The notes beneath the pieces were generated by a model, which worked only from the letters and a program-made list of their open reading frames with translations, ran no database searches and had not been told where the DNA came from. The position numbers were made by a program, and so were the translations under genes. From NCBI GenBank assembly GCA_951406725.2, contig OX597819.1:95790001-95854000 (forward strand): DNA of 64,000 nt. The letters run 5' to 3'. Shown piece by piece: positions 2,495-62,591 of this stretch (position 1 is its first letter; every line of letters starts with the position of its first letter). Source of the stretch: Octopus vulgaris. Lineage: Eukaryota.

Positions 2495-3703
2495 TTGGGT
2501 CATCCCATAAATAATACAGTTTTTACAATTGCATGAACTAAAAGTCAGAGGGGAGTGGGATAACTACCTGCATCAACTTGCTATAAAAGCAGGTAGTAAT
2601 TTTACCTTGCATTTATTCTTAGTGCAAGTTTTGAAGAGTGCAGTTCGATTTTAACAGTTATACTTTCAAAGCTATAATGAAAGTGACAAAGGAGCATATT
2701 TGGCATATTTTGCTTTATGAGTTCAATAAAAGCAACAATGCAACGGAAAGTGCAAGGAATATTAATGCAGAATATGGGGATTGGACAATAAGTGTAAGCC
2801 AGTGTCGATGGTTGTTCCAGAAATTCTGAGCCAGAAACTACAGCCAAGAAGATAAGCCTCATCCTGGAAGATCTGTAAAGCTTGATGGAACAAAATCCCA
2901 TCATAACTATTGAGGAACTAGCAGAGAAGCTCGGGTTTGGTCATTCAACCATTCACTATTACCTGTGTGCCATTGGAAAAGTCAGCAAATTGGGTTAATG
3001 AGTACCTCACAAACTTTCCAAGTCTAATTGCATGCAAAGGATGAATGTGTGCTCTTCCTTGCTGTCATGTTTTACAAATGTACTTTTTTGACCAAATAGT
3101 GACTGGTAACAAGAAATGGGTTCCCTATAAAAATGTCAAGCTCCGAAGACAGTGGGCAAGGAAAGGAGAAATACCGGCACCCCAGGCTAAAGAAGGTCTT
3201 CACCCATGTGAGGTATTGTTATCTGTTTGGTGGGATATGAAAGATTTAGTTCACTTTGAACTTTTAAACCCAAACCAAACAATAAGAAAGATCTATGGCA
3301 AGCAGCTTGAGCGGTTTAAGTCAGCACTAGAAAAAAACCCGACCATCTTTGGTTTCAAGATGAAAGATGTTCTTCCATTAGGATAATGCTCAGCCACATA
3401 TAATGAGGATGACGTTCCAAAGGCTAGAGTAGTTTGAATGAGAAACGATGTCCCACCCACCATATTTGCCAGACATTGCCCCGTCTGATTATAATTTATT
3501 TTGCAGTCTGCAGAATCATTTGGATGGGAAAAGTATGAATTCTGTAGACGAAGTCAGAACAGTAGTGGAGGAGTATTTTTTGTCATGGACAAGTGAATTT
3601 TGGAAGATGGGTCTTGGAAAAGCATTGTAGAAAATGAAGGAGAGTATATTTTAGATTAAATAAAAGAAGCATAAAAAAACACATTATTTATGGGATGATC
3701 CAA
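2495..3703 (+). mobile_element. Full-length but mutated mariner (DD34D) transposon in a GALM intron
   Basis: TIRs ttgggtcatcccataaataat and attatttatgggatgatccaa, flanked by CA (left) and TA (right). The disrupted transposase runs from ATG 2677: MKVTKEHIWHILLYEF..., IVTGNKKW (TGDEKW), LLSVWWD, HPPYLPDIAPSDY. Confidence 0.93.
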
Positions 3704-5768: not shown

Positions 5769-6428
5769 TATTGTGGCTGTTGATGAAAAGTTTAATATGA
5801 ATGATTAGTCATTCATTTTAAAGTTGGTTGTTGTTGGTCATTAAATGTAAATTTGTTTTAGCTTGATACCAACAGTCAGCAAGTAGACCTTCAACCAAAA
5901 TTTTTTTTTAAGGTTATATAGTATATCTTCTTATGAGTCTTTCTGTTTCTGATATGACAGGGTTTAATTTGAAAGAGTTGTATTCTTTCTTTTATTCTTT
6001 CACCAGCTTCAGTCATTGAACTGTACCCATTTCATTTGATATTTATTTTAACATACTAATAATATACAAAATGCAAAGTGCGGTGAGACATATATGTTGC
6101 ATGATATTTCTGTTTGAATGTACCAGTTCTCAAACATGCTTGAGTGTTAAGGACTTTAACCAACATTTTCAAGAGATAATTACATTAGTATGGATTTTCA
6201 ATGTGAATGGTTGACATATATACACAGCAAAGAACAAATTTGTTACAGAAGACACATGATGTCATCATAAGCCATCACAATGGTTAGGCCTCTTGTATGA
6301 CATAATGCAATATAAAGAATGCATAAAAAGATAGGGTATTGTATAATCAATGACATGTATATTTAAAATCAATCTTAATAGTGATTCTGATGAATTCATT
6401 TTATATTGATTTTCTTTTCAAATTATAG

Positions 6429-6600
6429 GGTGTGGCATGAAGAGACTGAACGAAGCCTCAAAGTTTGGTCTACCCAACCTGGAGTGCATGTGTACACTGG
6501 TTATTTCCTTAATGGGCCAGTGGGTAAAGACAGTGCAGTCTATAAAAAATATTCTGGACTTTGTTTGGAAACACAACACTATCCTAATAGTGTTAATGAA
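6429..6600 (+). CDS. GALM: Aldose 1-epimerase, internal exon
   Basis: ttatag acceptor and gtaagt donor, phase compatible with the previous exon. VWHEETERSLKVWSTQPGVHVYTGYFLNG...YSGLCLETQHYPNSVNE contains the TQPG..YTG and catalytic CLETQ motifs. Confidence 0.95.
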
Positions 6601-6675
6601 GTAAGTGTTCGGTTCTTTAAAAAAATTGTTCCTTTTCTCTATCTCTCTCACATATGTTTGGGTGTGTGTGTACAT

Positions 6676-7060
6676 GTGGCACCTTGAGCAAATGTCTTCT
6701 ACTATAGCTCTGGGCCAGCCAAAGCCTTGTGAGTAGATTTGGTAGAAGAAAACCTGTTGTTGTTGTTGTTGTGTGTGTGTGTGTGTGTGTGAACGTGTGT
6801 ATGTTTGTATCTCCTTGTCTTTGACATTGCTCGATAGTTGTATATAGGTATTACTATCATACAAGCAGTGACATTCATTTCTGATATTCTGCAAAAGCAT
6901 GTATGGCCATGAAGAAATATTACCTTGGAAACAGGTGGGGGTTGACAACAGGAAGGGTGTCTGACCATAGAAAATCTGCTTCAATAAACTCTGTCCAACC
7001 CTTGCAAGCATGGGTAAGTGCACCTTAAGACAATGGTGAAGATGATGATGATGGTGATGA
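6676..7060 (+). mobile_element. SINE with RTE-type 3' tail, 5' part missing
   Basis: Core ggcaccttgagcaaatgtcttctactatagc...aaagccttgtgagt is repeated elsewhere in the window. Ends in gcatgg...(gat)n like the RTE at 27384. Confidence 0.7.
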
Positions 7061-19409: not shown

Positions 19410-19652
19410 TTTATGCGCCCTTTTCAAGTCTAGTCAGGCTCATGGGCCCAGTTTCTAAGGCGTATGTGTTCCCCACCAGCTGGACAGGATGCCAGTCCAT
19501 TGCAGCATTTCTCAAGAAACAGGAAGAAAGTTGCGGTGAAAGAGTACAACAGGGGTCACCACCACCCCTTGCTGGAGCCTCATGGAGCTTTAGGTGTTTT
19601 CATTCAATAAACACGCACAACACCCGGTCTTGGAATCAAAACCGCGATCCTC
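19410..19652 (-). mobile_element. SINE-like insertion within the Penelope remnant
   Basis: GC-richer block with a B-box-like ggttttgattcc on the minus strand and an A-rich tail. Confidence 0.5.
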
Positions 19653-20659
19653 CACAAACTAGATATAATATACGATTTACTGGAAAAATTCTTAATTCTC
19701 AATAATTTAAAACTAAAATACGTAAAATACATAGAATAAACTAATTTTCGATAACTTAATCTATATTGATCAATTTATTTATTTATTTTATAAACACCTT
19801 GGTTTAATCTTATTTTAATTATGTAATATACACTACGTAATCTCCTGCTAACTTATACTCATTATACTACTACAAATTATAACTACAAAAATTAGTGACA
19901 TAAATCAGGGTTAAATATATACACAAATTAGCTAAACTTATTATATAAGTAATTTAACTTATGTCTACATTTAATTTTTCGCTTATCTTGGTATTTTGAA
20001 CAATTTTTTTTTATTTTTAGATGTACTTATTTGTACATAGTAAACAAAAATTATTACCTATTTGATAAGATTTAGCTTTACAAACTATCTCCCAATTTAA
20101 ATTATACTTAATTCCTTTAGATTTCAATCCCCACATATATTTGCTAAGGCCAGTAGAATTAATCAATGTTTTATTCTTAAATGAATACATGTGTTGAGCC
20201 ATCCTTAATTTAATTTTATTAGAAGTCGACCCCACGTAAATTGCATTTAGATTATAACTATTCATATTAATATTATCAAAGTTACTACACATTTATATAC
20301 TACATCATCCAAATTACATTTATTTTTAAACTTACATTTTGTCTTATCTCTACATGTACAATTAATTATATTCTGGTCTTTATTATTATTGGAATAATCA
20401 TTAATTCGTTACTGTAAAACTTAAGCTTAAATCTATTAAAAGAAATAATGTTACCAACATTATTAGTAGTAGAATAGCCAACTCTAAAATTATTACTAGA
20501 AAAAAAACGCTATTTTTTTTTATTATCTATAATGAATACTTCAATTTGTTTTAATATCTCTTTAATAATGTTTGTTTTAACTTGAGCCCCATAAAGAATA
20601 ATTAACCAAATTTTGTTCTTAGTATTAACATTATTTTCATTTATATTATTATATTTATT

Positions 20660-20995
20660 GCAGCATGGAAGGTGTTTGTAAGCCATTTAAGAAACACACA
20701 AAAGCCATTCGATTCACTTCAACATGTAAGTTTAATTTGTCAAAATATTTTTGTCGCTATAAGACCACGACCTGTTCACTGACAAAAATCCGTGCTACAT
20801 CTTTTTTGTCAGTGAACAGGTCGCGGTCTTATAGCGACAAAAATATTTTGACAAGTTAAAATTAAATGTTGAAGTGAATCGAACGGCTTTTGTGTGTTTC
20901 TTAAATGGCTTACAAACACCTTCCATGCTGCAATTGTTTTCGTTCGAGCACACAATCTCAGATCAAATCACTTGCTATGCAAGTACATCTCCGTA
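20660..20995. mobile_element. Inverted pLTR-like insertion (about 130-bp palindromic arms) with a 12-bp TSD
   Basis: Arms 20657-20788 and 20803-20934. attatatttatt is duplicated at 20648-20659 and 20996-21007. Confidence 0.8.
20806..20854 (+). ncRNA. Minimal hammerhead-like motif with G3-C8 core variant (mirror copy on the - strand at about 20737-20785)
   Basis: TTGTCA-GTGAACA-g-GTCGC(ggtcttata)GCGAC-AAA-AATATT-T-TGACAA. All three stems are present but G12 reads A. Confidence 0.5.
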
Positions 20996-21239
20996 ATTAT
21001 ATTTATTATTATCATTAAATGAATTAAATTTATTATCTTTTAGTCTATTATTATATTTATTTTTTGTATTATCATAATACCTATTATTAAAACCATAATT
21101 TCCTAAATAAAACTTATAAAGAATTTAATACTATTATTATATCCTGCCTCCCACAAGGCTTCATTATAATAAGGTGTGTTTTTTGAAAATCTATTATATA
21201 TATGTGTGTGTGTGTATATATATATATATACATGTATAT

Positions 21240-21450
21240 GTCACTTGTCCCTGTTATCTCCCCTACTGTCCCTCTCGCATCTGACCACTGTCCGAAGTCA
21301 GGACGCCATGATAGATCGTTAGCTCCTACACGCATTTTTTTCTCTCCTTGTTTTTTTCTGTGTATCTTTCTGTCGAAGAGCGTAGGCTCGAAACGTAAAA
21401 GACTTTTTCTATTTCTATTCCTGAGCACTATACTAATACATTTGTTTGTT
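21240..21450 (+). mobile_element. pLTR-like fragment between (TA)n tracts carrying a hammerhead-like motif
   Basis: tcttt-ctgtcGAAGAGC-gtag-GCTC-GAAACGTA-aaaga at 21365-21402. Confidence 0.5.
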
Positions 21451-21829
21451 ATATATATATATGTGTGTGTATATATATATGTGTATATATATAATCTCAC
21501 CACCAAACTACTAATCAAAATTTTATAATGCAAAAATCAGGTGGAGAGTTCTACTTGAAATATTAGGTATTCCTTCTTATGACAAACATTAACTCACATT
21601 TTGCTAATACTGTTTAAAAAAGCCACTTATTAAACGTGAGATGGAGGAGAGGGTATTGATAAACTCCACTCCCAGTATATAACTGATGGTTAATCTCTCA
21701 ACTCAATTAAAAATACAAAGTCAATCCCTGTGGAATTTGAATCCTAGATGAAACTAAATTGTACATTTAACTCAGCGTCTCAACATCTTTTAAATGTTAT
21801 TGCAAACATTCCACTGAGTAGAAATGACT

Positions 21830-22600
21830 ACACAAGACCGAAGGAAGAAAGTTTGCATTAAATTGTAATCCAATTCCGAATTTCCTGCTTTACAAATTTT
21901 ACAAAGAAACAATGCATTAGAAATGTTTGACTACCACTTGTAGCTAACAACAAACAAAAAGTTTTAAGGAAAATGTTAGTCTAACCAATGCTAAATTTCA
22001 TTGCTAATGCTTTAAGTATGCTAATTAACCCATTATCATCCACAATGACACATAATCTAGTGAATAATTGTCATGGTGACACATGTCTTCTGATAACTGC
22101 CTTCGTGACATTTTCAATGTTCTTTTTTCCTGAATTTTCAAGAGAAAACTGCAGTTTGACATAATTTTGCATAAAAAATTCAGGAGCAAATTAATCTTTG
22201 TTAGTAGAACTAGGAATATTTTTAAAAAACAGATCCCAATAAGTAAGAAGCTATGGATATAAATTATATTTTCCTTTTTGTTTTCAACTAATTTCTTGTA
22301 TATAGAACCTTACCCATTTTTTACATCAATTCATTCTGGTATGCCAATAAATGAAAGGAAAACATCTGTTTTAAAGAGTAGATATTCAAATTAAAGCCTT
22401 AAAGAGTAATTTTATGTAAGTTCTTGTTATATTATAAGAAACTGCTTGATACAGAAATAAATATAAAAATTAGCTTAACCAAATAGAAAATACTTGATTA
22501 TTTAAAAAATTTATACAAATGCAGAGGTAGAACATTTCAATAAAAATATAGCTGTGAAATAGTTAACATTTCAGTATGTTACCCTTGCAGTAAAAAAACC
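21830..22600 (-). mobile_element. Ancient L1/Tx1-like ORF2 remnant (N-terminal RT part), probably collinear with 15950-17450
   Basis: SSTNKD*FAPEFF resembles the SPG.DG...EFY motif and ISILKALAMKF resembles the ILAKALANRL motif. Confidence 0.35.
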
Positions 22601-23809: not shown

Positions 23810-24544
23810 TTACAGATTTATGCTTAAAATGGTGCCGTCTTTCATACTGACCATTCTTGCCACATTTACCCATTTTTTATTGAAACTTTCATTCGACAAT
23901 ACTTTCCTCTCTATTCTCATCCTCCTTTTCAAGTGGTACTTCAAAAAGTTGACTAGAGACTGACCAGAGAGGAAAGTGTTTGTTTGTAGGCCTTTCAAAC
24001 GTGTCCACCACACGCATTCTTTCGCCTTAGCTATCAGTGTTATGAAAACTGTTTTTCCCTCCCGTTTAAAGGAAGGTGGCGGAACAATATTCACGATAGA
24101 CTCAGCCGATAAGTGGGTCCGCCCTACACGCAACAACAGCTGTTCGACGAAGTTCCACAGCTCTGAAATATCTGGACACTGCACGAGTGCGTGCAGAACA
24201 GTTTTGTCGCTCTGACCGCATCTCGGGCATGCACGCCCGTTTCTGCCATCCACATCCAAGACAACCAGCCTACCCTCCGAGTCTAGGAATATCGATCTTA
24301 CTTTTACGTTTAGACTCTTTCGAAAAAGCGCCACGGTACCACCACCACCCATGTTTGGCAGACAGGGAGAAAAATAAATGTCGAATTGACCGCCAAACAT
24401 GGACGCAAGGGCCCGCGGCTTACTGAGTCTGGTTTCACTGATAGCTACTATATCAACGTTCAGTGACTTGATGTCATTTAGAAGGTAACCTTGCTTCTGA
24501 GCCGACGCCAAGCCACGCACATTCACACAACCTAATTTAAGCAT
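23810..24544 (-). CDS. Mini-ORF2: APE endonuclease N-terminal part fused in frame to the C-terminal CxxC-H-C zinc motif, no RT
   Basis: MLKLGCVNVRGL...DIVAISETRL...GGGTVAL...GRLVVLDV is followed directly by CPRCGQSDKTVLHALVQC. 244 aa with no stops. Confidence 0.8.
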   Translation of the reverse strand: MLKLGCVNVRGLASAQKQGYLLNDIKSLNVDIVAISETRLSKPRALASMFGGQFDIYFSPCLPNMGGGGTVALFRKSLNVKVRSIFLDSEGRLVVLDVDGRNGRACPRCGQSDKTVLHALVQCPDISELWNFVEQLLLRVGRTHLSAESIVNIVPPPSFKREGKTVFITLIAKAKECVWWTRLKGLQTNTFLSGQSLVNFLKYHLKRRMRIERKVLSNESFNKKWVNVARMVSMKDGTILSINL

Positions 24545-24608
24545 AATTTATGGTCAAAAAGTTGTGTTCCACACAACAGTGAAAGAGACGAGAAGGAAGG
24601 TTACTTAC

Positions 24609-29672: not shown

Positions 29673-31322
29673 TTACAGTGATGCTTCATCTCTTGTATGG
29701 ATAAGTCTGTGTCTAGTTAAGTGGTTTATTTGAGAGAATGATTTACTACAGATATCACAGTCATATGGCTTCTCTCCTGAATGAATACGTTTGTGAGTTG
29801 TTAAGGAATCATTTACAGAGAATGATTTACCACAGACATCACAGTGATATGGTTTCTCTCCAGTATGAACACGCCTGTGAGCAGTCAAATGACTTGTTTG
29901 AGAGAATGATTTTCCACAGATATCACAACAATATGGTTTTTCTCCTGTGTGAGTACGTTTGTGTCCACTTACTGCACTTCCAACAGAGAATGATTTACCA
30001 CAGATGTCACAATGATATGGCTTCTCACCTGTATGAACATGTTTGTGCTTACTTAAGTGACTTGCTTGAGAAAACGATTTACCACAGACATCACAATGAT
30101 ATGGTTTCTCTCCTGTATGAATGTATTTGTGTGCAATTAAGACATTTCCATGAGAGAACGATTTACCACAGATATCACAGTGATATGGTTTCTCACCAGT
30201 ATGAACACGTTTGTGAGTGGTTAAATTAGAATTTCTAGAAAATGCCTTACCACAGATTTCACACTGAAATGGGGTTTCTCCCGTATGAGTGCGTTTGTGT
30301 TTAGTTAAGTCACCCTTTTCAGAGAAGGATTTACCACAGATATCACAGTGATATGGCTGCTCTCCTGTATGAATACGTGTGTGAATTTTTAACCGAAAAC
30401 TTACAGAGAATGATTTACCGCAGATATCACAGTGATATGGTTTTTCTCCTGTATGAATACGTTTGTGTTGAGTGAAGTGATCATTTCGAGAAAATGACTT
30501 ATTGCATATGTGGCAGTGATATGGCTTCTCTCCTGTATGAATACGTTTGTGATTAATTAAATGGGCATTTTCAGCGAATGATTTACCACAGATATCACAA
30601 GGATAAGGCTTCTCTCCTGTATGAATGCGTGTGTGTCTAATTAACTGACAGTTTTGAATGAATGATTTACCACAGACATCACAGTGATGTGGTTTCTCTC
30701 CTGTATGACAGCGTTTATGAGTTGTCAAGTGACCTTTTGTAGTAAATGATTTACCACACATATCACAGTCATATGGCTTCTCTCCAGTATGAGAGCGTTT
30801 GTGTATGGGTATATCACCATTACAAGAGAATGCTTTACCACAGATATCACAGTGAAAGGGCTTCTCCCCTGTATGAATACGTTTGTGTTTAGTTAAGTGA
30901 TCATTTACAGAGAATGATCTACCACAGATATCACAGTGATATGGCCTCTCTCCTGTATGAATACGTTTATGTTTGGTTAGTTCACCACTTCCATAGAATG
31001 ACTTAGCACAGAAATTACAACTATATGGCTTTTCCCCTGTATGAATGCGTTTATGTTTAGTTAAGTGATTTATTTGAACGAATGATTTACCACAGAAATC
31101 ACAGTGAAATGGTTTTTCTCCTGTATGAATGCGTTTGTGAATATTAAGATTACATTTTTGAGAGAATGATTTTCCACAGCTATTGCAGAGGAATGATGTT
31201 TTTGCTCTTTCTTTCAGCAGCTCATCAGAACGGATTTTTTTAGAGTCTGTTTTGCATTTAACCTTGTTCTCATATGGTATATTTTCCATAATTTTTCTTT
31301 TCTTAATGCAATATATACACAT
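29673..31322 (-). CDS. Tandem C2H2 zinc-finger protein, 18 fingers, single coding exon (start may be a downstream Met)
   Basis: 18 CxxC-x12-HxxxH repeats with TGEKPY-type linkers. Acceptor tatttcag| precedes 31643. Confidence 0.95.
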
Positions 31323-39380: not shown

Positions 39381-40526
39381 TCAATTTAAAGTTTTCCTAC
39401 CAATGTGCATCTGTTCGTGCCTTTTTAAGTAATCATTAGATACAAAAGATTTCTCACACATTTTACAGTGGTAGGGTTTTTCCCCAGTGTGGCTACGTTT
39501 GTGGATTGTAAGCTTAAAATTTTCAATGAAAGATTTCCCGCATATTTCACAGCGGAAAGGCTTTTCCCCAGTATGACTACGTTTGTGGATAACAAGTTTC
39601 GAATTATTAGTGAAGGATTTCCTGCATATTTCACAACTGAACGGTTTTTCTCCCGTGTGAATTCGTTTGTGTTTTGTTAAATCGCTATTATCAACAAAGG
39701 ATTTTCCGCAGATTTCACAGGGGTAAGGTTTTTCACCCGTATGTATTCGTTTATGCCTTTTTAAGTGATTGTTATTTATAAATGATTTCCCACAGATTTC
39801 ACAGTGAAACAGCTTCTCGCCGGTATGACTACGTATGTGAATAACAAGATGAGAATTCTGAGTGAAAGATGCCCCACAGATTTCACAGTGGAACGGTTTT
39901 TCCCCCGAGTGTATTATTTTGTGCATTGTCAAGTTACTGTTAGACACAAATGACTTCCCGCATATTTCACACTGATAGAGTTTTTCCCCCGTGTGAATTA
40001 TTTTATGAACCACAAGATGAGAATTCTGAGTGAAAGATTTTCCACACACGTCACAGCGAAACGGTTTCTCTCCCGTGTGAATTCGTTTATGTGTTGTTAA
40101 TTTACTATTATCCAGAAAAGATTTCCCGCATATTTCACACTGAAACGGATTTTCTCCAGTATGACTACGTTTGTGGGCAACAAGACACGAATTCTGAATA
40201 AAAGATTCCCCACATATTTCACAATAGTAAGGTTTTTCCCCAGTATGTAGTCTTTTATGCCTCGTCAAACAACTGTTATTGACAAAATATTTTCCACATA
40301 TTTCACATTGGTATGGCTTTTCCTTATTGTGTATTTCTTTGTGTGCGAAGACTTCTTGTTCCGAGGAGAATGTTTTCCTACATATCTCACAACTATATTC
40401 ACTAACATTTCCGTGTAATGATGTTTGTTTAGTAAATGTTTCACTACGTAAAGGTTTCTCATAGCTGTGTGTCTGTGTAACTGAATCTGTTGTGTTTAAA
40501 GTGTCCAAGTGATTAACGTCATCCAT
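39381..40526 (-). CDS. Tandem C2H2 zinc-finger protein, 12 fingers, single coding exon
   Basis: 12 CEICGK-type fingers with TGEKP linkers. Acceptor ttctcag| precedes 40553. Confidence 0.95.
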   Translation of the reverse strand: MDDVNHLDTLNTTDSVTQTHSYEKPLRSETFTKQTSLHGNVSEYSCEICRKTFSSEQEVFAHKEIHNKEKPYQCEICGKYFVNNSCLTRHKRLHTGEKPYYCEICGESFIQNSCLVAHKRSHTGENPFQCEICGKSFLDNSKLTTHKRIHTGEKPFRCDVCGKSFTQNSHLVVHKIIHTGEKLYQCEICGKSFVSNSNLTMHKIIHSGEKPFHCEICGASFTQNSHLVIHIRSHTGEKLFHCEICGKSFINNNHLKRHKRIHTGEKPYPCEICGKSFVDNSDLTKHKRIHTGEKPFSCEICRKSFTNNSKLVIHKRSHTGEKPFRCEICGKSFIENFKLTIHKRSHTGEKPYHCKMCEKSFVSNDYLKRHEQMHIGRKTLN

Positions 40527-41379
40527 ATTGATTTTCGAGGAATTCTTAACAAACTGAGAAATGTGAAAATAATCTATTATGGTTCATCGATTTGGAGGGA
40601 CAGTGCTTATATGATTTTATAAGAGTAATCACTACATATGAAACATTTACATAAACAGCACTATGTTCCTAATATATGATGGGCGGTGTTACTGACAATG
40701 TTTCCCTAGTCTAAATGACAACGGTGTTGTAAATTAGATGTCCTAACATAATTCAATACATTCAGAAACGCCTTCACTCATATTAATTTGCTTCTTCGAT
40801 TCAATCGGATCCATGGTAGTAATAGTAATAATAATCTTTTTCTGTTAACCGCTGAGGGTTTATATAAAAGATTGGTGACGGTACAGACAAATACAATTCA
40901 AATAAAATGGGATTGAAACTTGTAAATAACAATAACAATGAAAATGTTAATAATATCACTAAAAAGGGAGACTTCCAAAGGCTTTCGTGGAAACCCCACA
41001 AACCCACGATCGCCCTGATCTCTAAGTCACATGCCCTCTCTTCTTCATCTACCCTCGATCTAGAGGCGCATGCTTATAGTAGGTCTGTTCCCATGGGCCA
41101 GTCACACTACATTTACCCACCTATTAACCACAGTGTACAAGATTCAGTATGCTGACAATTCAGCTACACCATCTCATACCTCTTCCTTTCTTTAACCCAC
41201 GATAAACTCAATGAACAGTGCCTATTCTCAGCTTGGTCTTCAAGTGAATCAGCCTTTCCATACTCACATCCTTCTCAGCCCATTCTTATTGATGATGTTT
41301 CTCTCCTGTAGGTGAACTCCTTGGCCTCTGCATCGTTCAGGAGACTCAGCAAATGAGTCTTTCAGAACAAGAAACTTAG

Positions 41380-46184: not shown

Positions 46185-46577
46185 GTCCAAGTTGGTGGTG
46201 AAAGAGTCATGGGCAGAATTTGCACAGGATGGTCGGTGCGGGTCGAGGATGTTGAAAATGCTCCTTTCCTCTCCTGCGTTTTACCTCATTCTGTTGTCTG
46301 TTCTGCTTGAAGGAGCTGGCTCTATTGTGAATAGTAGTCTTTGAGGTTGTCCTATCCATGGCAATCTGTTCCCATGAGGATGGATGGGTGTTAGTTTGAG
46401 CCAAGGTCTGTTTGAGCTGGTCTTTAAAAAGGAATTTTGGGCCTCCTCTGCATCTTGTTCCAATTGCATGTTCTCTGTAGAGCATGATCTTTGGGAGATG
46501 AAAGGGCTCCATATGCTGGACGTGACCTGCCCATCAGAAGCAATGGTGAAGAATGGTGGCTTCAATGCTTGGTAGAG
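46185..46577 (-). mobile_element. RTE (BovB-like) ORF 3' end
   Basis: SIEATIL...WAGHV, HLPKIMLY...GTRCRGGPK..FKDQLK...WEQIAMDR, CKFC. Confidence 0.8.
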
Positions 46578-46825
46578 AAAGAGTTTGCTTAAAATCACCA
46601 GATAGCAGGAGAGATACACCTCCTATTGGGCAGTGACAGTCCCTGATATCTTGTAGGGTCCTATCTGGGGCCTCTAGGAATCCTTTATGGGCCATTGTGC
46701 ATTCATCCCACACAATGAGCTGGTACCTTCTCAGGACTTTTGCTTTGTCCCAGCCCTTGCTGATATTGCAAGTTGCAGAGTCAGACATAGTCACATTAAA
46801 TGCAAGTTTAAAAGTGGAATAAACC
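46578..46825 (-). mobile_element. Helitron PIF1-helicase fragment
   Basis: STFKL...CNISK...LIVWDECTMAHK..LEA.DRTLQDIR....IGGVSLLLSGDFKQTL. Confidence 0.88.
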
Positions 46826-46829
46826 ATCC

Positions 46830-47079
46830 TTTTATCATGGACAGGAAGTTGGGACAAAGAGCCAATGTGAAATTTTGCATTAAACTTGGGAACTCTGCTA
46901 CAGAGACATTGAACATACTTCATTAAGCATATAGTGACGAGGCAATAGGTCATACACAATGTTTCGAGTGGCACAGGCGCTTGAAAAGCAGAACATCTCT
47001 AGAAGATGACGAACTTAAGTAAATAAGTTATTTTTTATTAAATATAACTTGTCCGGGAACCTTTTGGTACCACCTCATA
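46830..47079 (+). mobile_element. Internally deleted mariner fragment
   Basis: MDRKLGQRANVKFCIKLGNSATETL..L..AY.DEA......FEWHRR...RTSLEDDE, then a TIR-like gtccgggaaccttttggtaccacctca-ta. Confidence 0.8.
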
Positions 47080-47935: not shown

Positions 47936-48231
47936 GTTATGTTATAATATTGATAACAAATTACAAAATATATTTCAGTCACTTAGATAAATTTCTGTAT
48001 CTAAAACTTACTAATATAGATATGTAGTAAAATTTCCACTGTTGAATTTCCATTTTTAAGTATCCTCTACATTGTTTACTTTTTCTCTATTTCAGAATAT
48101 TAGATAATATTGAAAACAATATCTTGGAGTAAAATGATTATTAGATGGAGAAACAGCTTCCCAGTTACATAAAAATATCCCATGGATGATATTTACCAAG
48201 TTTACTGAACAAAATTTTTCTGACCGAAAAC

Positions 48232-50847
48232 ATGGATCAAATTCTTCAAGGACTTTTTGTTTCTAATCACCCAGATATACTTAAAGAAAAAATTCTACAA
48301 AAAATATTAAAATCACCGAAAACAGCACAAGACACAGTCCCAGTTTTAAACCTTGCTGTAAAATGGTCATTAGATGGAGAAACTGCATTCCAATGTACAT
48401 CCGGTGTTCGACTTTACGAAAATTGGGCAAGAGACAATGAAGAGATATTTCAAAAATATTTCAACAAAGTTTTAATGAATGATATCTTAATTAATTCACA
48501 CCAAAATCCAACAGCAGCCATTGTTATCATCGAAAAATCGTTACAAATTTTAAAAGGTACTGAATGCTATGCATCATTAGTGAAATATTTCCAGCAATTA
48601 ATCACAATATTTTTAAAACAGAACAGTAATTTACAATGTTTAGCTATAATCTTTTCTTTATTGATGAAACAGCCTAAATGTGTTCCTGTTTATCAACGAT
48701 ATGACTTCTGTTGTGTGATCATTGATATTTTATATGTTACTAGAACACCAAAACAAGGAGTTAATTTTTTACAAGAAGTTAAAACTATAAATACAGCTGG
48801 ACAAATTTTATTTCAATTATGGGAAAATTGTACTCCTAATAATTCTAATGATGACACAAAGAAAAATTCAGTTCATTATCTGTTTTCCTTAATTTCGCAG
48901 CCATTTGACAGTCCTGCTGTCTGTCTTGGAACGTTGAGCCAAATACCAGTTAAATCAGTAGAAGAAATTATTGATTTAATTAATATTGATGTAATTAATA
49001 AACCTAGAATCTCCAACACAATTTATCAAATTTTACATTGGCTGGATTGGCCATTTTCTCAACGAGTACATATATGGATAATTGGGATATTTGAAAAATT
49101 AGCAGCAGCAGGATTTGATGAAGTTTTAAAAGAAATTGCTCAGGAGGCTATTGTTTTCATAGTCAACATGCTGAAACCCATTGCTTCTAGAGAATCTGCA
49201 GCTAAGATCTTGGTACATATATATACAAAGATACAGCTGAGTCCTGATAGTACCTCTCACATGATAATGTCTTTGGTCGACATCATTCCAATATTAGCAG
49301 AGGAAAAAAGCAGCACAGGTTTAGCATGCATTGAAATTTTATTGGCCAATATGGAGTTGGAAATATATTGGCATTCTAAAGAACCATTTATAAAATATAG
49401 ACAGACTTGTTTCTCAATCAAAGAACTGCAATTAAATAAAGTAAAACCTCTTGCAGCGTTATGTAATACTAGTAATTGCAGAAATTTTACTGTTCCTCCT
49501 CTTGAAATTAAGAAGGCTCTAACACGCAAAACTGGATTGTGCAATGTGAAAAACTCGTGTTATATGAATTCAGCTATTCAGGTGCTCTTTATGTTGGATA
49601 ATTTTAGACAAGAGGTATTAGGCATGCCAGTGCCCCCTGGTGGAATCATCAGCAAACTACAAGAAGTTTTCTCCTATCTACTATCAAGCCAACGGCCTTC
49701 TTTTTACCCATCAGAATTCTATTGCAATGCTAATCCTTCGTGGTTTGCAAAATATGAGCAGCAAGACTGTGCAGAGTTTTTGTCACATCTTCTGAATGCT
49801 TTTGATGAGGAAGAAAAGAAAAACAGCACGAAAACAGAGTCATTGAGTGATAAAAACAAGGGAGAGATAACTAAATGCGAAATAGTAGATAGTAAATCAA
49901 GAACGCTGATTGATAGAAATTTTTTTGGTAAGCTCAGAAACTCTACAAGATGTCTAAAATGTCAAACAGAAACAAAATACGAAGAAAGATTTTCGTTTTT
50001 GCTCCTAGCATTACCACATGATGATGATGAGGAGGAGGAGGTGAAAGAAGAGAAAAATATAAATGATAAACTCGATATTCGAGACTTAATACAGAATTAC
50101 TTCACAGTGGAAGAATTGAAGGTTAGTAATCAATTTAAGTGTCCAAACTGTGATGATTATCGTGATGGAATTCGACAAGTTTTCCTCATAGACGCTCCAG
50201 AATATTTAAATCTAACTTTATCAAGATTTTCTTATAATAAAAAGAATAAAAAGCGGTCTAAAATTATGGCTTATGTCAATTATCCAAAAGAATTATGTTT
50301 AAAATGTTTCACTACAAATGATGAGAGTTTGGTTGTCGAGGAAGATATTAATTATGTACTGTGTTCTGTTGTTATTCATTCTGGTTATAACAGTGATTCC
50401 GGACATTGTATATTGCTATCCCGACATTCGTGTTTAATTAATGAACATTATACAAACTTGAATAATTTACTAAAAGACAACTGGTATATTTTTAATGATG
50501 AATCTGTGACAGAAACAAAGTATAATTTTTCAGATACACTTAAATCATCAAAAAGTGACACTCCTTACTTTTTTATATATAGACGTGTAACAAAAGAACT
50601 ATTAGATTCAGGTGAGTTATGCTGTAATCTAGAAGAACTGCTTGAAAAATCTGTAATTCCAGAAAGATTTCAAAAGGAAATTTCAAAAGACAATGAAAGG
50701 TATTTCAAGGAAAAATTATCACAGGTCAAAGATGAAGACAGCACAAAAAAGAAAAAAGATGACTTTGACTATGATGGCAGTGGGAACAGTGGAGGGACAA
50801 ATGCTTTTGGCCACTTAGACATCTTTGGGTCTAAGTTTATATACTAA
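48232..50847 (+). CDS. Ubiquitin carboxyl-terminal hydrolase, USP35/USP38 family, intronless CDS
   Basis: N-terminus MDQILQGLFVSNHP..LK resembles USP38/35. Cys box GLCNVKNSCYMNS, QQDCAEFL, two CxxC pairs, His box HSG.NSDSGH, WYIFNDESV, Gly-rich C-terminus. Acceptor tatttcag| at 48095. Confidence 0.93.
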   Translation: MDQILQGLFVSNHPDILKEKILQKILKSPKTAQDTVPVLNLAVKWSLDGETAFQCTSGVRLYENWARDNEEIFQKYFNKVLMNDILINSHQNPTAAIVIIEKSLQILKGTECYASLVKYFQQLITIFLKQNSNLQCLAIIFSLLMKQPKCVPVYQRYDFCCVIIDILYVTRTPKQGVNFLQEVKTINTAGQILFQLWENCTPNNSNDDTKKNSVHYLFSLISQPFDSPAVCLGTLSQIPVKSVEEIIDLINIDVINKPRISNTIYQILHWLDWPFSQRVHIWIIGIFEKLAAAGFDEVLKEIAQEAIVFIVNMLKPIASRESAAKILVHIYTKIQLSPDSTSHMIMSLVDIIPILAEEKSSTGLACIEILLANMELEIYWHSKEPFIKYRQTCFSIKELQLNKVKPLAALCNTSNCRNFTVPPLEIKKALTRKTGLCNVKNSCYMNSAIQVLFMLDNFRQEVLGMPVPPGGIISKLQEVFSYLLSSQRPSFYPSEFYCNANPSWFAKYEQQDCAEFLSHLLNAFDEEEKKNSTKTESLSDKNKGEITKCEIVDSKSRTLIDRNFFGKLRNSTRCLKCQTETKYEERFSFLLLALPHDDDEEEEVKEEKNINDKLDIRDLIQNYFTVEELKVSNQFKCPNCDDYRDGIRQVFLIDAPEYLNLTLSRFSYNKKNKKRSKIMAYVNYPKELCLKCFTTNDESLVVEEDINYVLCSVVIHSGYNSDSGHCILLSRHSCLINEHYTNLNNLLKDNWYIFNDESVTETKYNFSDTLKSSKSDTPYFFIYRRVTKELLDSGELCCNLEELLEKSVIPERFQKEISKDNERYFKEKLSQVKDEDSTKKKKDDFDYDGSGNSGGTNAFGHLDIFGSKFIY

Positions 50848-61365: not shown

Positions 61366-61661
61366 GTGTTGGGATTACTCCAATGAATTGACAGTAAGGT
61401 AGTTGCTTCTTGTTTTTTTTCTGTCTGTAAACATGTTGTCTCTGTTTTTGTTGATTTAACTTGCAGTACTTATGGTCAGATATCTTCTCTCCAATAATTT
61501 TCATACTTATACTTCATTGTCCATTATATCTTTCTATTTCAGATAAAAATACTTCACTGAAAATGATCGACATATTTATCAACTTTTGAAGGCTAAAACT
61601 AATTCATTCATCAAACTGATGCCAACCCGTTTTTTATAACTCAGGTTTGGAACACAAAGTT

Positions 61662-62591
61662 ATGAATAAGAAAGCAAAGCTTGAGTATATTGATTCATCT
61701 ACCCAGACACAGGAAAATGCAAAAGAGAAATCCTACCCTTGTGATATATGCAGAAAATCATTAACAACAAGAAAGAATTTGATTCAGCATAAATTAAATC
61801 ACTCAGTCTCCAAGCTGTACCCCTGTGAAGTTTGTGGTAAAAAGTTTACTACAAATCGTTCCTTGTCTCTCCACAAACATATTCATACAGGAGAAAAGCC
61901 ACACTGTTGTGATATCTGTGGTAAAGCATTTTCTCAAAATAGTAATTTATCTTCCCACAGACGTATACATACAGGTGAGAAACCATATCACTGTGATGTC
62001 TGTGGTAAATCATTCTCTGTAAATGGTAGTTTATCTTATCACAAACGTACACACACAGGGGAGAAACCATATCATTGTGATATCTGTGGTAAAACATTCT
62101 CTCTGAATGGTAGTTTATCTTATCACAAACGTACACACACGGGAGAGTACCCATATCATTGTGGTATCTGTGGTAAATCATTTTCCCGGAGTGGTGGTTT
62201 GTCTTACCACAAACTCGTTCACACTGGAGAGAAACCATACCACTGTGATATCTGTGGTCAAATGTTCTCTCACAGTGGCAGTTTGTCTTCTCACAAACGT
62301 ATTCACACAGGAGAGAAACCATATCACTGTGATATCTGTGGTAGAACATTTTCACAGGGTGGTAGCTTGATATCTCACAGGCGAATCCATACTGGAGAGA
62401 ACCCGTATTATTGTGATATTTGTGGTAAAACATTTTCTCAGAGCGGTGGCTTGTCTTACCATAAACTTGTTCATACAGGGAAAAAACCATACTGCTGTGA
62501 TATCTGTGGGAAATCATTCTCTCAAAATTATAATTTATCTTCTCACAAACGTATCCACACTCGTGGGAAAGCATGCTATGATGGCATATGA
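61662..62591 (+). CDS. Tandem C2H2 zinc-finger protein, 10 fingers, single coding exon
   Basis: 10 fingers with TGEKPY linkers. The first ATG is at 61662; the ORF-track start at 61647 is TTG. Confidence 0.93.

Follow-up and report, generated by a model that had tools for sequence, protein, structure and literature searches.

The insertion at 20660-20995 of the window (the whole stretch of 64,000 nucleotides of Octopus vulgaris DNA that was analysed) is a palindrome carrying two mirror-image motifs that resemble hammerhead ribozymes with G3-C8 in the core. It raises the questions of whether the motif is a hammerhead by descent and can cleave, to what kind of element it belongs, and how the palindrome was formed. 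Our reading as a whole, namely a Penelope pLTR pair made by two-strand nicking and copying of an uncut capped RNA, with a slow and assisted ribozyme, is probably correct.

Anatomy and state of the insert

Re-measurement recovered the palindrome, the insert and the target-site duplication of the preliminary description. The palindrome arms (20657-20788 and 20803-20934) are each 132 nt long and complementary at 127 of 132 positions (96%), with 14 nt between them. The insert is 336 bp long and is flanked by a 12-bp direct repeat. The left copy of this duplication (20648-20659) is AT-rich, and its last 3 nt (ATT) also match the short 3′ end of the element; the right copy (20996-21007) opens with ATT, which also continues the element sequence. 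At both junctions, ATT is common to element and target.

The GTGAACA core, stems I and II, A12 and AATATT that had been claimed for each arm are present in both: stem I is TTGTCA/TGACAA, the core is followed by a bulged G, stem II is GTCG(C/T)/GCGAC, and each arm has A at position 12, the palindromic AATATT and a UUU triplet. The long arm (20803-20995, plus strand) is a pLTR truncated 14 nt past the modal start of the family, plus a Penelope “tail” of about 60 nt (20935-20995, plus strand) that lies between the short and long 3′ ends; 20905-20995 (plus strand) holds the initial 30 codons of the parent's RT/GIY-YIG ORF, in decayed form. Its minimal type I hammerhead motif (20806-20854, plus strand) consists of stem I (20806-11/20849-54), the core with G3, C8 and A9 (20812-18), the bulged G (20819), stem II (20820-24/20834-38), A in place of G12 (20839) and the palindromic stem III (20842-47), with cleavage predicted after U17 at 20848. 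The short, tail-less arm (20660-20802, minus strand) is a pLTR that runs from the modal 5′ start (the A of AGATG, 20802) to the short 3′ end; its motif (20737-20785, minus strand) has G3 at 20779, the G12-to-A change at 20752 and a C-to-U wobble topping stem II. The 14-nt loop of the preliminary description (20789-20802) is no spacer: on the minus strand it corresponds to the opening 14 nt of the family RNA (AGATG...), found in the short arm only, and the left arm is therefore 14 nt longer at its 5′ end. A MITE with long terminal inverted repeats was considered and rejected, because the arms are unequal and most copies are solo.

The family consensus has G12, in agreement with the earlier suggestion that this copy is probably inactive; by contrast, UUU, which had been counted as a defect of the copy, is the state of the whole family. 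A12 is the result of CpG decay, since it occurs in 4 among the 100 matches listed (of 337 in the window's subfamily), the same rate as at the neighbouring CpG; descent from an A12 source subfamily was rejected on these grounds. Folding predictions give a read-through transcript of the insert a 132-bp hairpin of about -215 kcal/mol, which buries both motifs. On the basis of this hairpin and of G12A in both arms, the copy is predicted to be inactive and neutral.

Judging by the 68 of 107 listed ORFs that were scanned, the insert has an aldose-epimerase exon (~6.5 kb) on one side and a zinc-finger ORF (~30 kb) on the other, and is an inert insertion in non-coding DNA. The aldose-1-epimerase exon is at 6394-6684 (+); three C2H2 zinc-finger ORFs and an 885-aa USP38-like ORF account for 29676-31322 (-), 39384-40583 (-), 48190-50844 (+) and 61620-62588 (+). 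Fragments of a mariner (3045-3383), a LINE endonuclease (23813-24547) and a PIF1/Helitron (46537-46998) are also present. A second, unrelated minimal hammerhead at 21364-21402 (+) has C3-G8, a GAGC/GCTC stem II, GAAA-CGT and an A6-to-U change; related motifs at L117, L161 and L170 indicate that it belongs to another abundant PLE family.

Abundance of the family and its swapped core

A 19-mer that covers stem I, the core and stem II is matched exactly 6,459 times in the genome, which comprises 227 contigs and 2.8 Gb, and its reversed control is never matched; the motif is therefore not due to chance. A pattern left open at positions 3, 7, 8 and 12 and in loop II has 5,103 matches. Among the 100 of these listed, G3 and C8 each occur in 98, G12 in 97 and the core GUGAACA in 96, and loop II divides the same 100 into several subfamilies. 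These counts support the proposal of a hammerhead homolog with a natural G3-C8 swap, and speak against the possibility raised with it that the consensus might lack G12. Matches without C8 number 532, against the 6,459 core matches, and G3-G8 and other single changes are rare. G3-G8 as an evolutionary intermediate was rejected: it was hand-counted in 22 of the 100 listed among the 532, and the majority of the old lineage is G3-C8, which does not support it. The stretch occurs in twenty runs from four organisms (A-D), none of them recorded as RNA. Contigs of these organisms carry the same pLTR with both 3′ ends, and no difference at position 3 or 8 was seen among the rows listed.

The family has the features of a type I hammerhead: stems I and II, a bulge after A9, G10.1-C11.1 and a palindromic stem III, which reads AATATT in young copies and AATT in old ones and is thus self-complementary, of the dimer type that had been described. 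G12-A13-A14, A15.1-U16.1 and H17 (within UUU) are complete in the family and incomplete in the window copy. The core is not literally CUGANGA, but the Watson-Crick pair 3-8 is kept. Rfam gave no hammerhead match in 19500-22000 of the window up to E 10, and standard CUGANGA searches do miss a motif with this core, as had been anticipated. We conclude that the stub very probably carries a natural hammerhead homolog with a swapped core.

The parent element

The motif belongs to an autonomous Penelope-like retrotransposon, which we call family A. At L178, L181 and other loci, the motif is followed by the short 3′ end and then by the tail, in frame into the ORF. Family-A ORFs reach 1,025 aa, and the motif lies in the 3′ pLTR at all nine loci that reported it (11 fetched). 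There are 480 copies that extend upstream, via a CTAAC-pyrimidine-AG stretch and (TACA)n DNA, into the GIY-YIG and RT ORF. Direct copies 4.26 kb apart occur at L159 and L181, those at L159 being two direct pLTRs around a frameshifted ORF, and the tail overlaps the ORF start.

The parent protein contains DKSG, YVDD, a CX3CXXC linker and, at the C terminus, a GIY-YIG domain, which Pfam recognises at 23.1 bits against a cut-off of 22.6; its atlas neighbours (0.96-0.98) carry RVT_1, HTH_animal and GIY-YIG. The linker, CQSNCAVC at aa 896, together with C-x4-C and two His in EN, agrees with the CX2-5CxxC and CCHH pattern. The one-sided tail on an inverted 5′-truncated copy, the short target-site duplication and the AT-rich targets, commonly with (TA)n flanks, also fit, and by the features published in the available parts of PMC8557442 the parent is an EN+ PLE of the Neptune/Nematis type. 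At L130 a GIY-YIG ORF of another kind lies upstream of the copy; we read it as a nested insertion, because the family-A ORF is common to the other extended copies. On C28 (L031-L033, 25.04-25.07 Mb), a tandem of 5.2 kb was rejected as a full-length array; it is a duplicated gene unit, which we take to be a fucosyltransferase-like gene or exon, that carries the element along.

The window insert is thus almost certainly a dead stub, and the element it comes from is of a known kind. The Penelope-type inverted pLTR of the preliminary description is borne out, in that the RT/GIY-YIG ORF is linked to the repeat and the stubs are head-to-head. Its “non-coding retrozyme/pLTR-like family” survives only as to the pLTR. 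The insert ends in 30 codons that open the RT/GIY-YIG ORF, and the family is not non-coding, because motif and tail run into an autonomous ORF.

A separate, non-autonomous retrozyme family replicating via a hammerhead-cut circular RNA would account for the dominance of short copies (6,459 core matches against 22 to the N-terminal part of the ORF) and for a few tandem runs of a short unit (L193, L010), and retrozymes have been proposed to derive from pLTRs (bioRxiv 10.64898/2026.07.22.740005, in the part available). We regard it as very improbable. The repeat unit runs colinear with the autonomous element and stops within the ORF of the latter, with no circular permutation at the cleavage site; the youngest subfamily is identical in stubs and in ORF-bearing copies; and none of 54 unbiased loci was a head-to-tail array in which two full cores share one orientation. 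Rather than non-coding head-to-tail monomers, the sampled copies are solo or head-to-head. Head-to-tail short units, with (TA)n and a fixed junction of 15 nt between them, occur at L193 (C28 4.99 Mb), L010 and L027-L029, and could possibly be the start of a retrozyme-like or satellite derivative.

Conservation, covariation and sister families

An older lineage of family A, aligned over 24 loci, has about 80% identity to the query and keeps G3-C8, both stems and GAAA; G3-C8 is therefore fixed in old and young lineages alike. Its loop II is unlike that of the young lineage, and its stem III palindrome is AATT rather than AATATT, both being self-complementary. Comparison of the old majority with a young copy shows 12 of 88 positions differing at the ORF start, 4/9 in loop II and 14/54 in the spacer. 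The core and stems differ at 0/34, against 18/63 for loop II plus spacer (p 2e-4), a result that hangs on where stem III has its 2-nt gap: with the gap placed elsewhere by MAFFT in a global alignment, the figures become 5/35 and p 0.14.

Sister family B has 55% protein identity over 815 aa, with intact ORFs of 1,310-1,312 aa. Families B and C (30 loci for C) have C3-G8 and a GTCAC/GTGAC stem II in the same place before the homologous ORF start. In a comparison of 17 natural copies of families A, B and C, which represent three or four independent lineages and not 17 events, 5 of 11 pairs change on both sides (pair 3-8, two in stem I and one each in stems II and III), supplying the covarying stems that had been sought. 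In all, 97.3% of cells are paired, against 21-49% in slid controls; the shuffle control overstates the covariation. U4, G5, A6, G12, A13 and A14 are unchanged in all lineages. These sequence patterns point to selection on the hammerhead fold.

How strict this selection is for cleavage is questioned by family B. TGATGC, with C at position 9, was hand-counted in 73 of the 100 B/C matches listed (of 5,322), and this change is expected to hurt catalysis. A U3-A8 sister family did not show up with this narrow pattern, one of the 100 listed rows reading TGAAAA. Older family B copies keep A9, and the triplets of the family are CUC/CUU. Since family B is mostly C9 yet highly amplified, selection for cleavage in the clade is not strict, and catalysis may be dispensable, given A9C in the most active sister family. 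Family B (L167-L173, e.g. C17 6.33 Mb) is very young, with an Asn-rich insert, tandem pLTRs and thousands of stubs. Family C (L243-L272; about 2,900 first-look candidates) is older, with a fully canonical core, a UUC triplet and a near-palindromic stem III that contains G-U.

How head-to-head stubs may form

The arms of the stubs were surveyed at 54 of 56 fetched C1 loci; segmental duplicates and family B/C loci are excluded from the arm counts. Of the 68 arms, 4 are truncated; the others stop at one of two fixed 3′ ends some 60 nt from each other, 34 at the short and 30 at the long one. Family B has two 3′ ends 57 nt apart in the homologous place. Head-to-head pairs combine one tailed and one tail-less arm in 27 of 28 cases (p 1e-7), while arms overall are evenly divided (114 long, 109 short). 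In a set picked regardless of tail, 12 of 13 pairs are long plus short (p 0.002). The 5′ ends are also narrowly placed, with 61 of 68 arms beginning within -4 to +17 of the A in AGATG (mode 0). This start precedes the ribozyme by about 20 nt and the predicted cleavage site by about 55 nt, which implies that the templates were uncut. Among arms that start at AGATG without upstream pLTR, 17 of 28 have G at -1 (loci picked for 5′ extension being excluded), and C is found there in 14 of 15 that keep the upstream pLTR; a separate hand count gives G in 30/52. Many of these G are at inversion junctions or in the target-site duplication, where microhomology is a possible source.

Two internal RT starts that define the tail, and cutting and extension of both strands, have been described in vitro for PAc in the accessible part of PMC11167929. 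We infer by analogy that two priming events on opposite strands make the palindrome here. The enzyme of the element would nick both strands of AT-rich target DNA, and each nicked strand would prime copying of the sense RNA, from two internal start points. The template would be a capped, uncleaved, sense RNA starting at the A of AGATG, the extra G at -1 probably being a copy of the 5′ cap; the cDNAs would extend to the cap before being linked head to head. The left arm in the window would have reached the start (20802) and the right arm lost 14 nt, giving the apparent loop.

The arms of one palindrome are related, a point in favour of a different origin, by self-priming or fold-back copying of one template with arm-to-arm conversion, the 5′ edge then being a splice acceptor. 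Both arms are of one subfamily in 24 of 28 palindromes, which fold-back copying also explains; rare variants are shared in 8 cases against 0.8 expected, and the window arms share G12A. Antisense self-priming has been proposed for rotifer Penelope (PMC3846280, available part). The remaining 4 of 28 (L009, L048, L060, L062) are mosaics, which join arms from different subfamilies and call either for two templates or for a later conversion. As a general rule, fold-back copying of one arm therefore does not hold, and the earlier suggestion that the inversion was copied after the mutation is one of several readings, which the shared rare variants favour. The fixed 3′ ends, which differ between arms in 27/28, also argue against it. 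As to splicing, the edge does read CTAAC-pyrimidines-AG, like a branch point, polypyrimidine tract and AG, and is kept in 480 copies, and the D. virilis Penelope intron ends at helix I (PMC4209133). Against this, the short copies have no common exon-1 sequence before ATG, AG is kept and G is often added. A spliced exon 1 was rejected because no sequence is shared upstream of short copies; the contigs contain no informative joint. We consider this alternative unlikely, and prefer priming on both nicked strands.

Two further observations concern insertion sites. L005 and L019 inserted independently into almost one and the same site of another repeat family, which hints at a target preference. 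L047, L049, L083, L084, L087 and L088 share identical flanks and represent a single insertion found at six places on C1, so this stub travels inside a larger repeat; in its stem I, a U-G wobble replaces U-A.

Is the ribozyme active?

In folding predictions, intact family-A copies form stems I and II with a probability of 0.8-1.0, while the dimer helix of 6 bp (AATATT) is only marginally stable at -0.2 kcal/mol. As a hammerhead triplet, UUU should be weak. Engineered hammerheads provide a guide: G8C makes cleavage 10^5-fold slower, a loss that C3G makes good in part (PMC8495972), and a PLE hammerhead whose cleavage requires the protein of the element is rescued in part by C3G/G8C (PMC11167929), according to the available parts of these papers. 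We predict the intact motif to be a slow ribozyme assisted by dimerisation or by protein; that it may cleave, if slowly, is in our view slightly favoured.

The motif could instead be a hammerhead by descent that is catalytically dead or irrelevant, with a fold kept as a 5′ UTR element (protein-binding, promoter-proximal or affecting translation) and a G3-C8 pair that hitch-hiked in a successful lineage. Family B was massively amplified with C9, and the templates of inserted copies were uncut, since these copies start upstream of the cleavage site. The G12A common to both window arms may mean that a dead source was still copied. In the part of PMC11167929 available, hammerhead mutants had no effect on in vitro insertion and no RNA ends were found at the site in Anolis; Naiads are described in PMC8557442 (available part) as having spread without canonical hammerheads. 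Against this explanation stands a double transversion that restores exactly the 3-8 pair, with U4, G5, A6, G12, A13 and A14 invariant and with single changes, including G3-G8, rare (532 non-C8 matches against 6,459); an invariant core with a restored 3-8 pair is what selection on the active conformation predicts. We consider a dead hammerhead possible but rather unlikely, and continue to favour a slow, assisted ribozyme.

Comparison with known elements

Like family A, published pLTR hammerheads lie in the pLTR, with an unpaired base between 9 and 10.1, G10.1-C11.1, a palindromic 15.2-16.2 and loop 3, and they occur mostly as solo truncated copies, some close together on opposite strands. They have C3-G8 and U3-A8 (Schistosoma, about 1,300 hits), whereas family A has G3-C8, and differs also in its UUU triplet, its 5-bp stem II and its stem I of 6-7 bp.

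In the sections available of PMC8557442 and PMC3846280, Neptune/Nematis EN+ PLEs resemble family A in having a single ORF with RT followed by C-terminal GIY-YIG, and a CX2-5CxxC linker; they also share partial tandems, an inverted 5′-truncated pLTR, a one-sided tail overlapping the ORF start, a target-site duplication of 8-12 bp and (TA)n targets. The tail is longer here (about 57-60 nt compared to 30-40), and family A is set apart by the 128 aa that separate RT motifs A and B in the parent protein.

Poseidon PAc of Anolis, as described in the available part of PMC11167929, resembles family A in a tail that arises from two RT starts inside the 5′ end of the ORF, in cutting and extension of both target strands at ATT, and in the use of uncut RNA as template. 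Its ORF starts inside stem II, compared to about 55 nt downstream of the ribozyme in family A, and its C3G/G8C is a partly active laboratory double mutant, whereas the swap of family A is natural and present in thousands of copies.

Non-LTR retrozymes are, like family A, short, high-copy, of the type I hammerhead and likely related to PLEs; in the accessible parts of the sources (PMC7229834; Li et al. 2026) they are non-coding head-to-tail arrays with canonical motifs and circular RNAs, in contrast to family A, whose copies are dispersed and head-to-head and belong to a coding element.

Significance of the swapped core

In the available portions of three papers, G3-C8 appears only as an engineered variant (PMC11167929, PMC8495972, PMC3884650), and the natural 3-8 covariation in two others is U3-A8 (PMC3088659, PMC4209133). 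A natural G3-C8 was not found in the literature searched; such a class may be listed in the largest survey of PLE hammerhead variants (Lunse et al. 2017) or in reviews and papers on core variants. PMC11014351 gave no match for the G3-C8 terms tried, and the octopus repeat annotation of PMC13282606, in the part available, has Penelope families and no ribozyme.

We put forward only tentatively the joint claim of a natural, selected G3-C8 hammerhead and of insertion by two RNAs, one per nicked strand, from different internal sites and copied to the cap. If true, two-RNA insertion would account for the inversion of pLTRs and for the tail on one side, with no need of antisense self-priming, and the anatomy of the stubs yields testable predictions on Penelope integration. 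If the claim on the hammerhead is true, G3-C8, canonical C3-G8 and C9 variants in one clade would form a natural mutagenesis series, in which the sister families (canonical C3-G8, and C3-G8 with C9) are natural controls for cleavage work. Descriptors that demand CUGANGA, and Rfam in this window, miss thousands of motifs, and hammerhead censuses are therefore incomplete. The retention of the 3-8 swap over about 20% divergence argues for selection on active-site geometry in Penelope elements.
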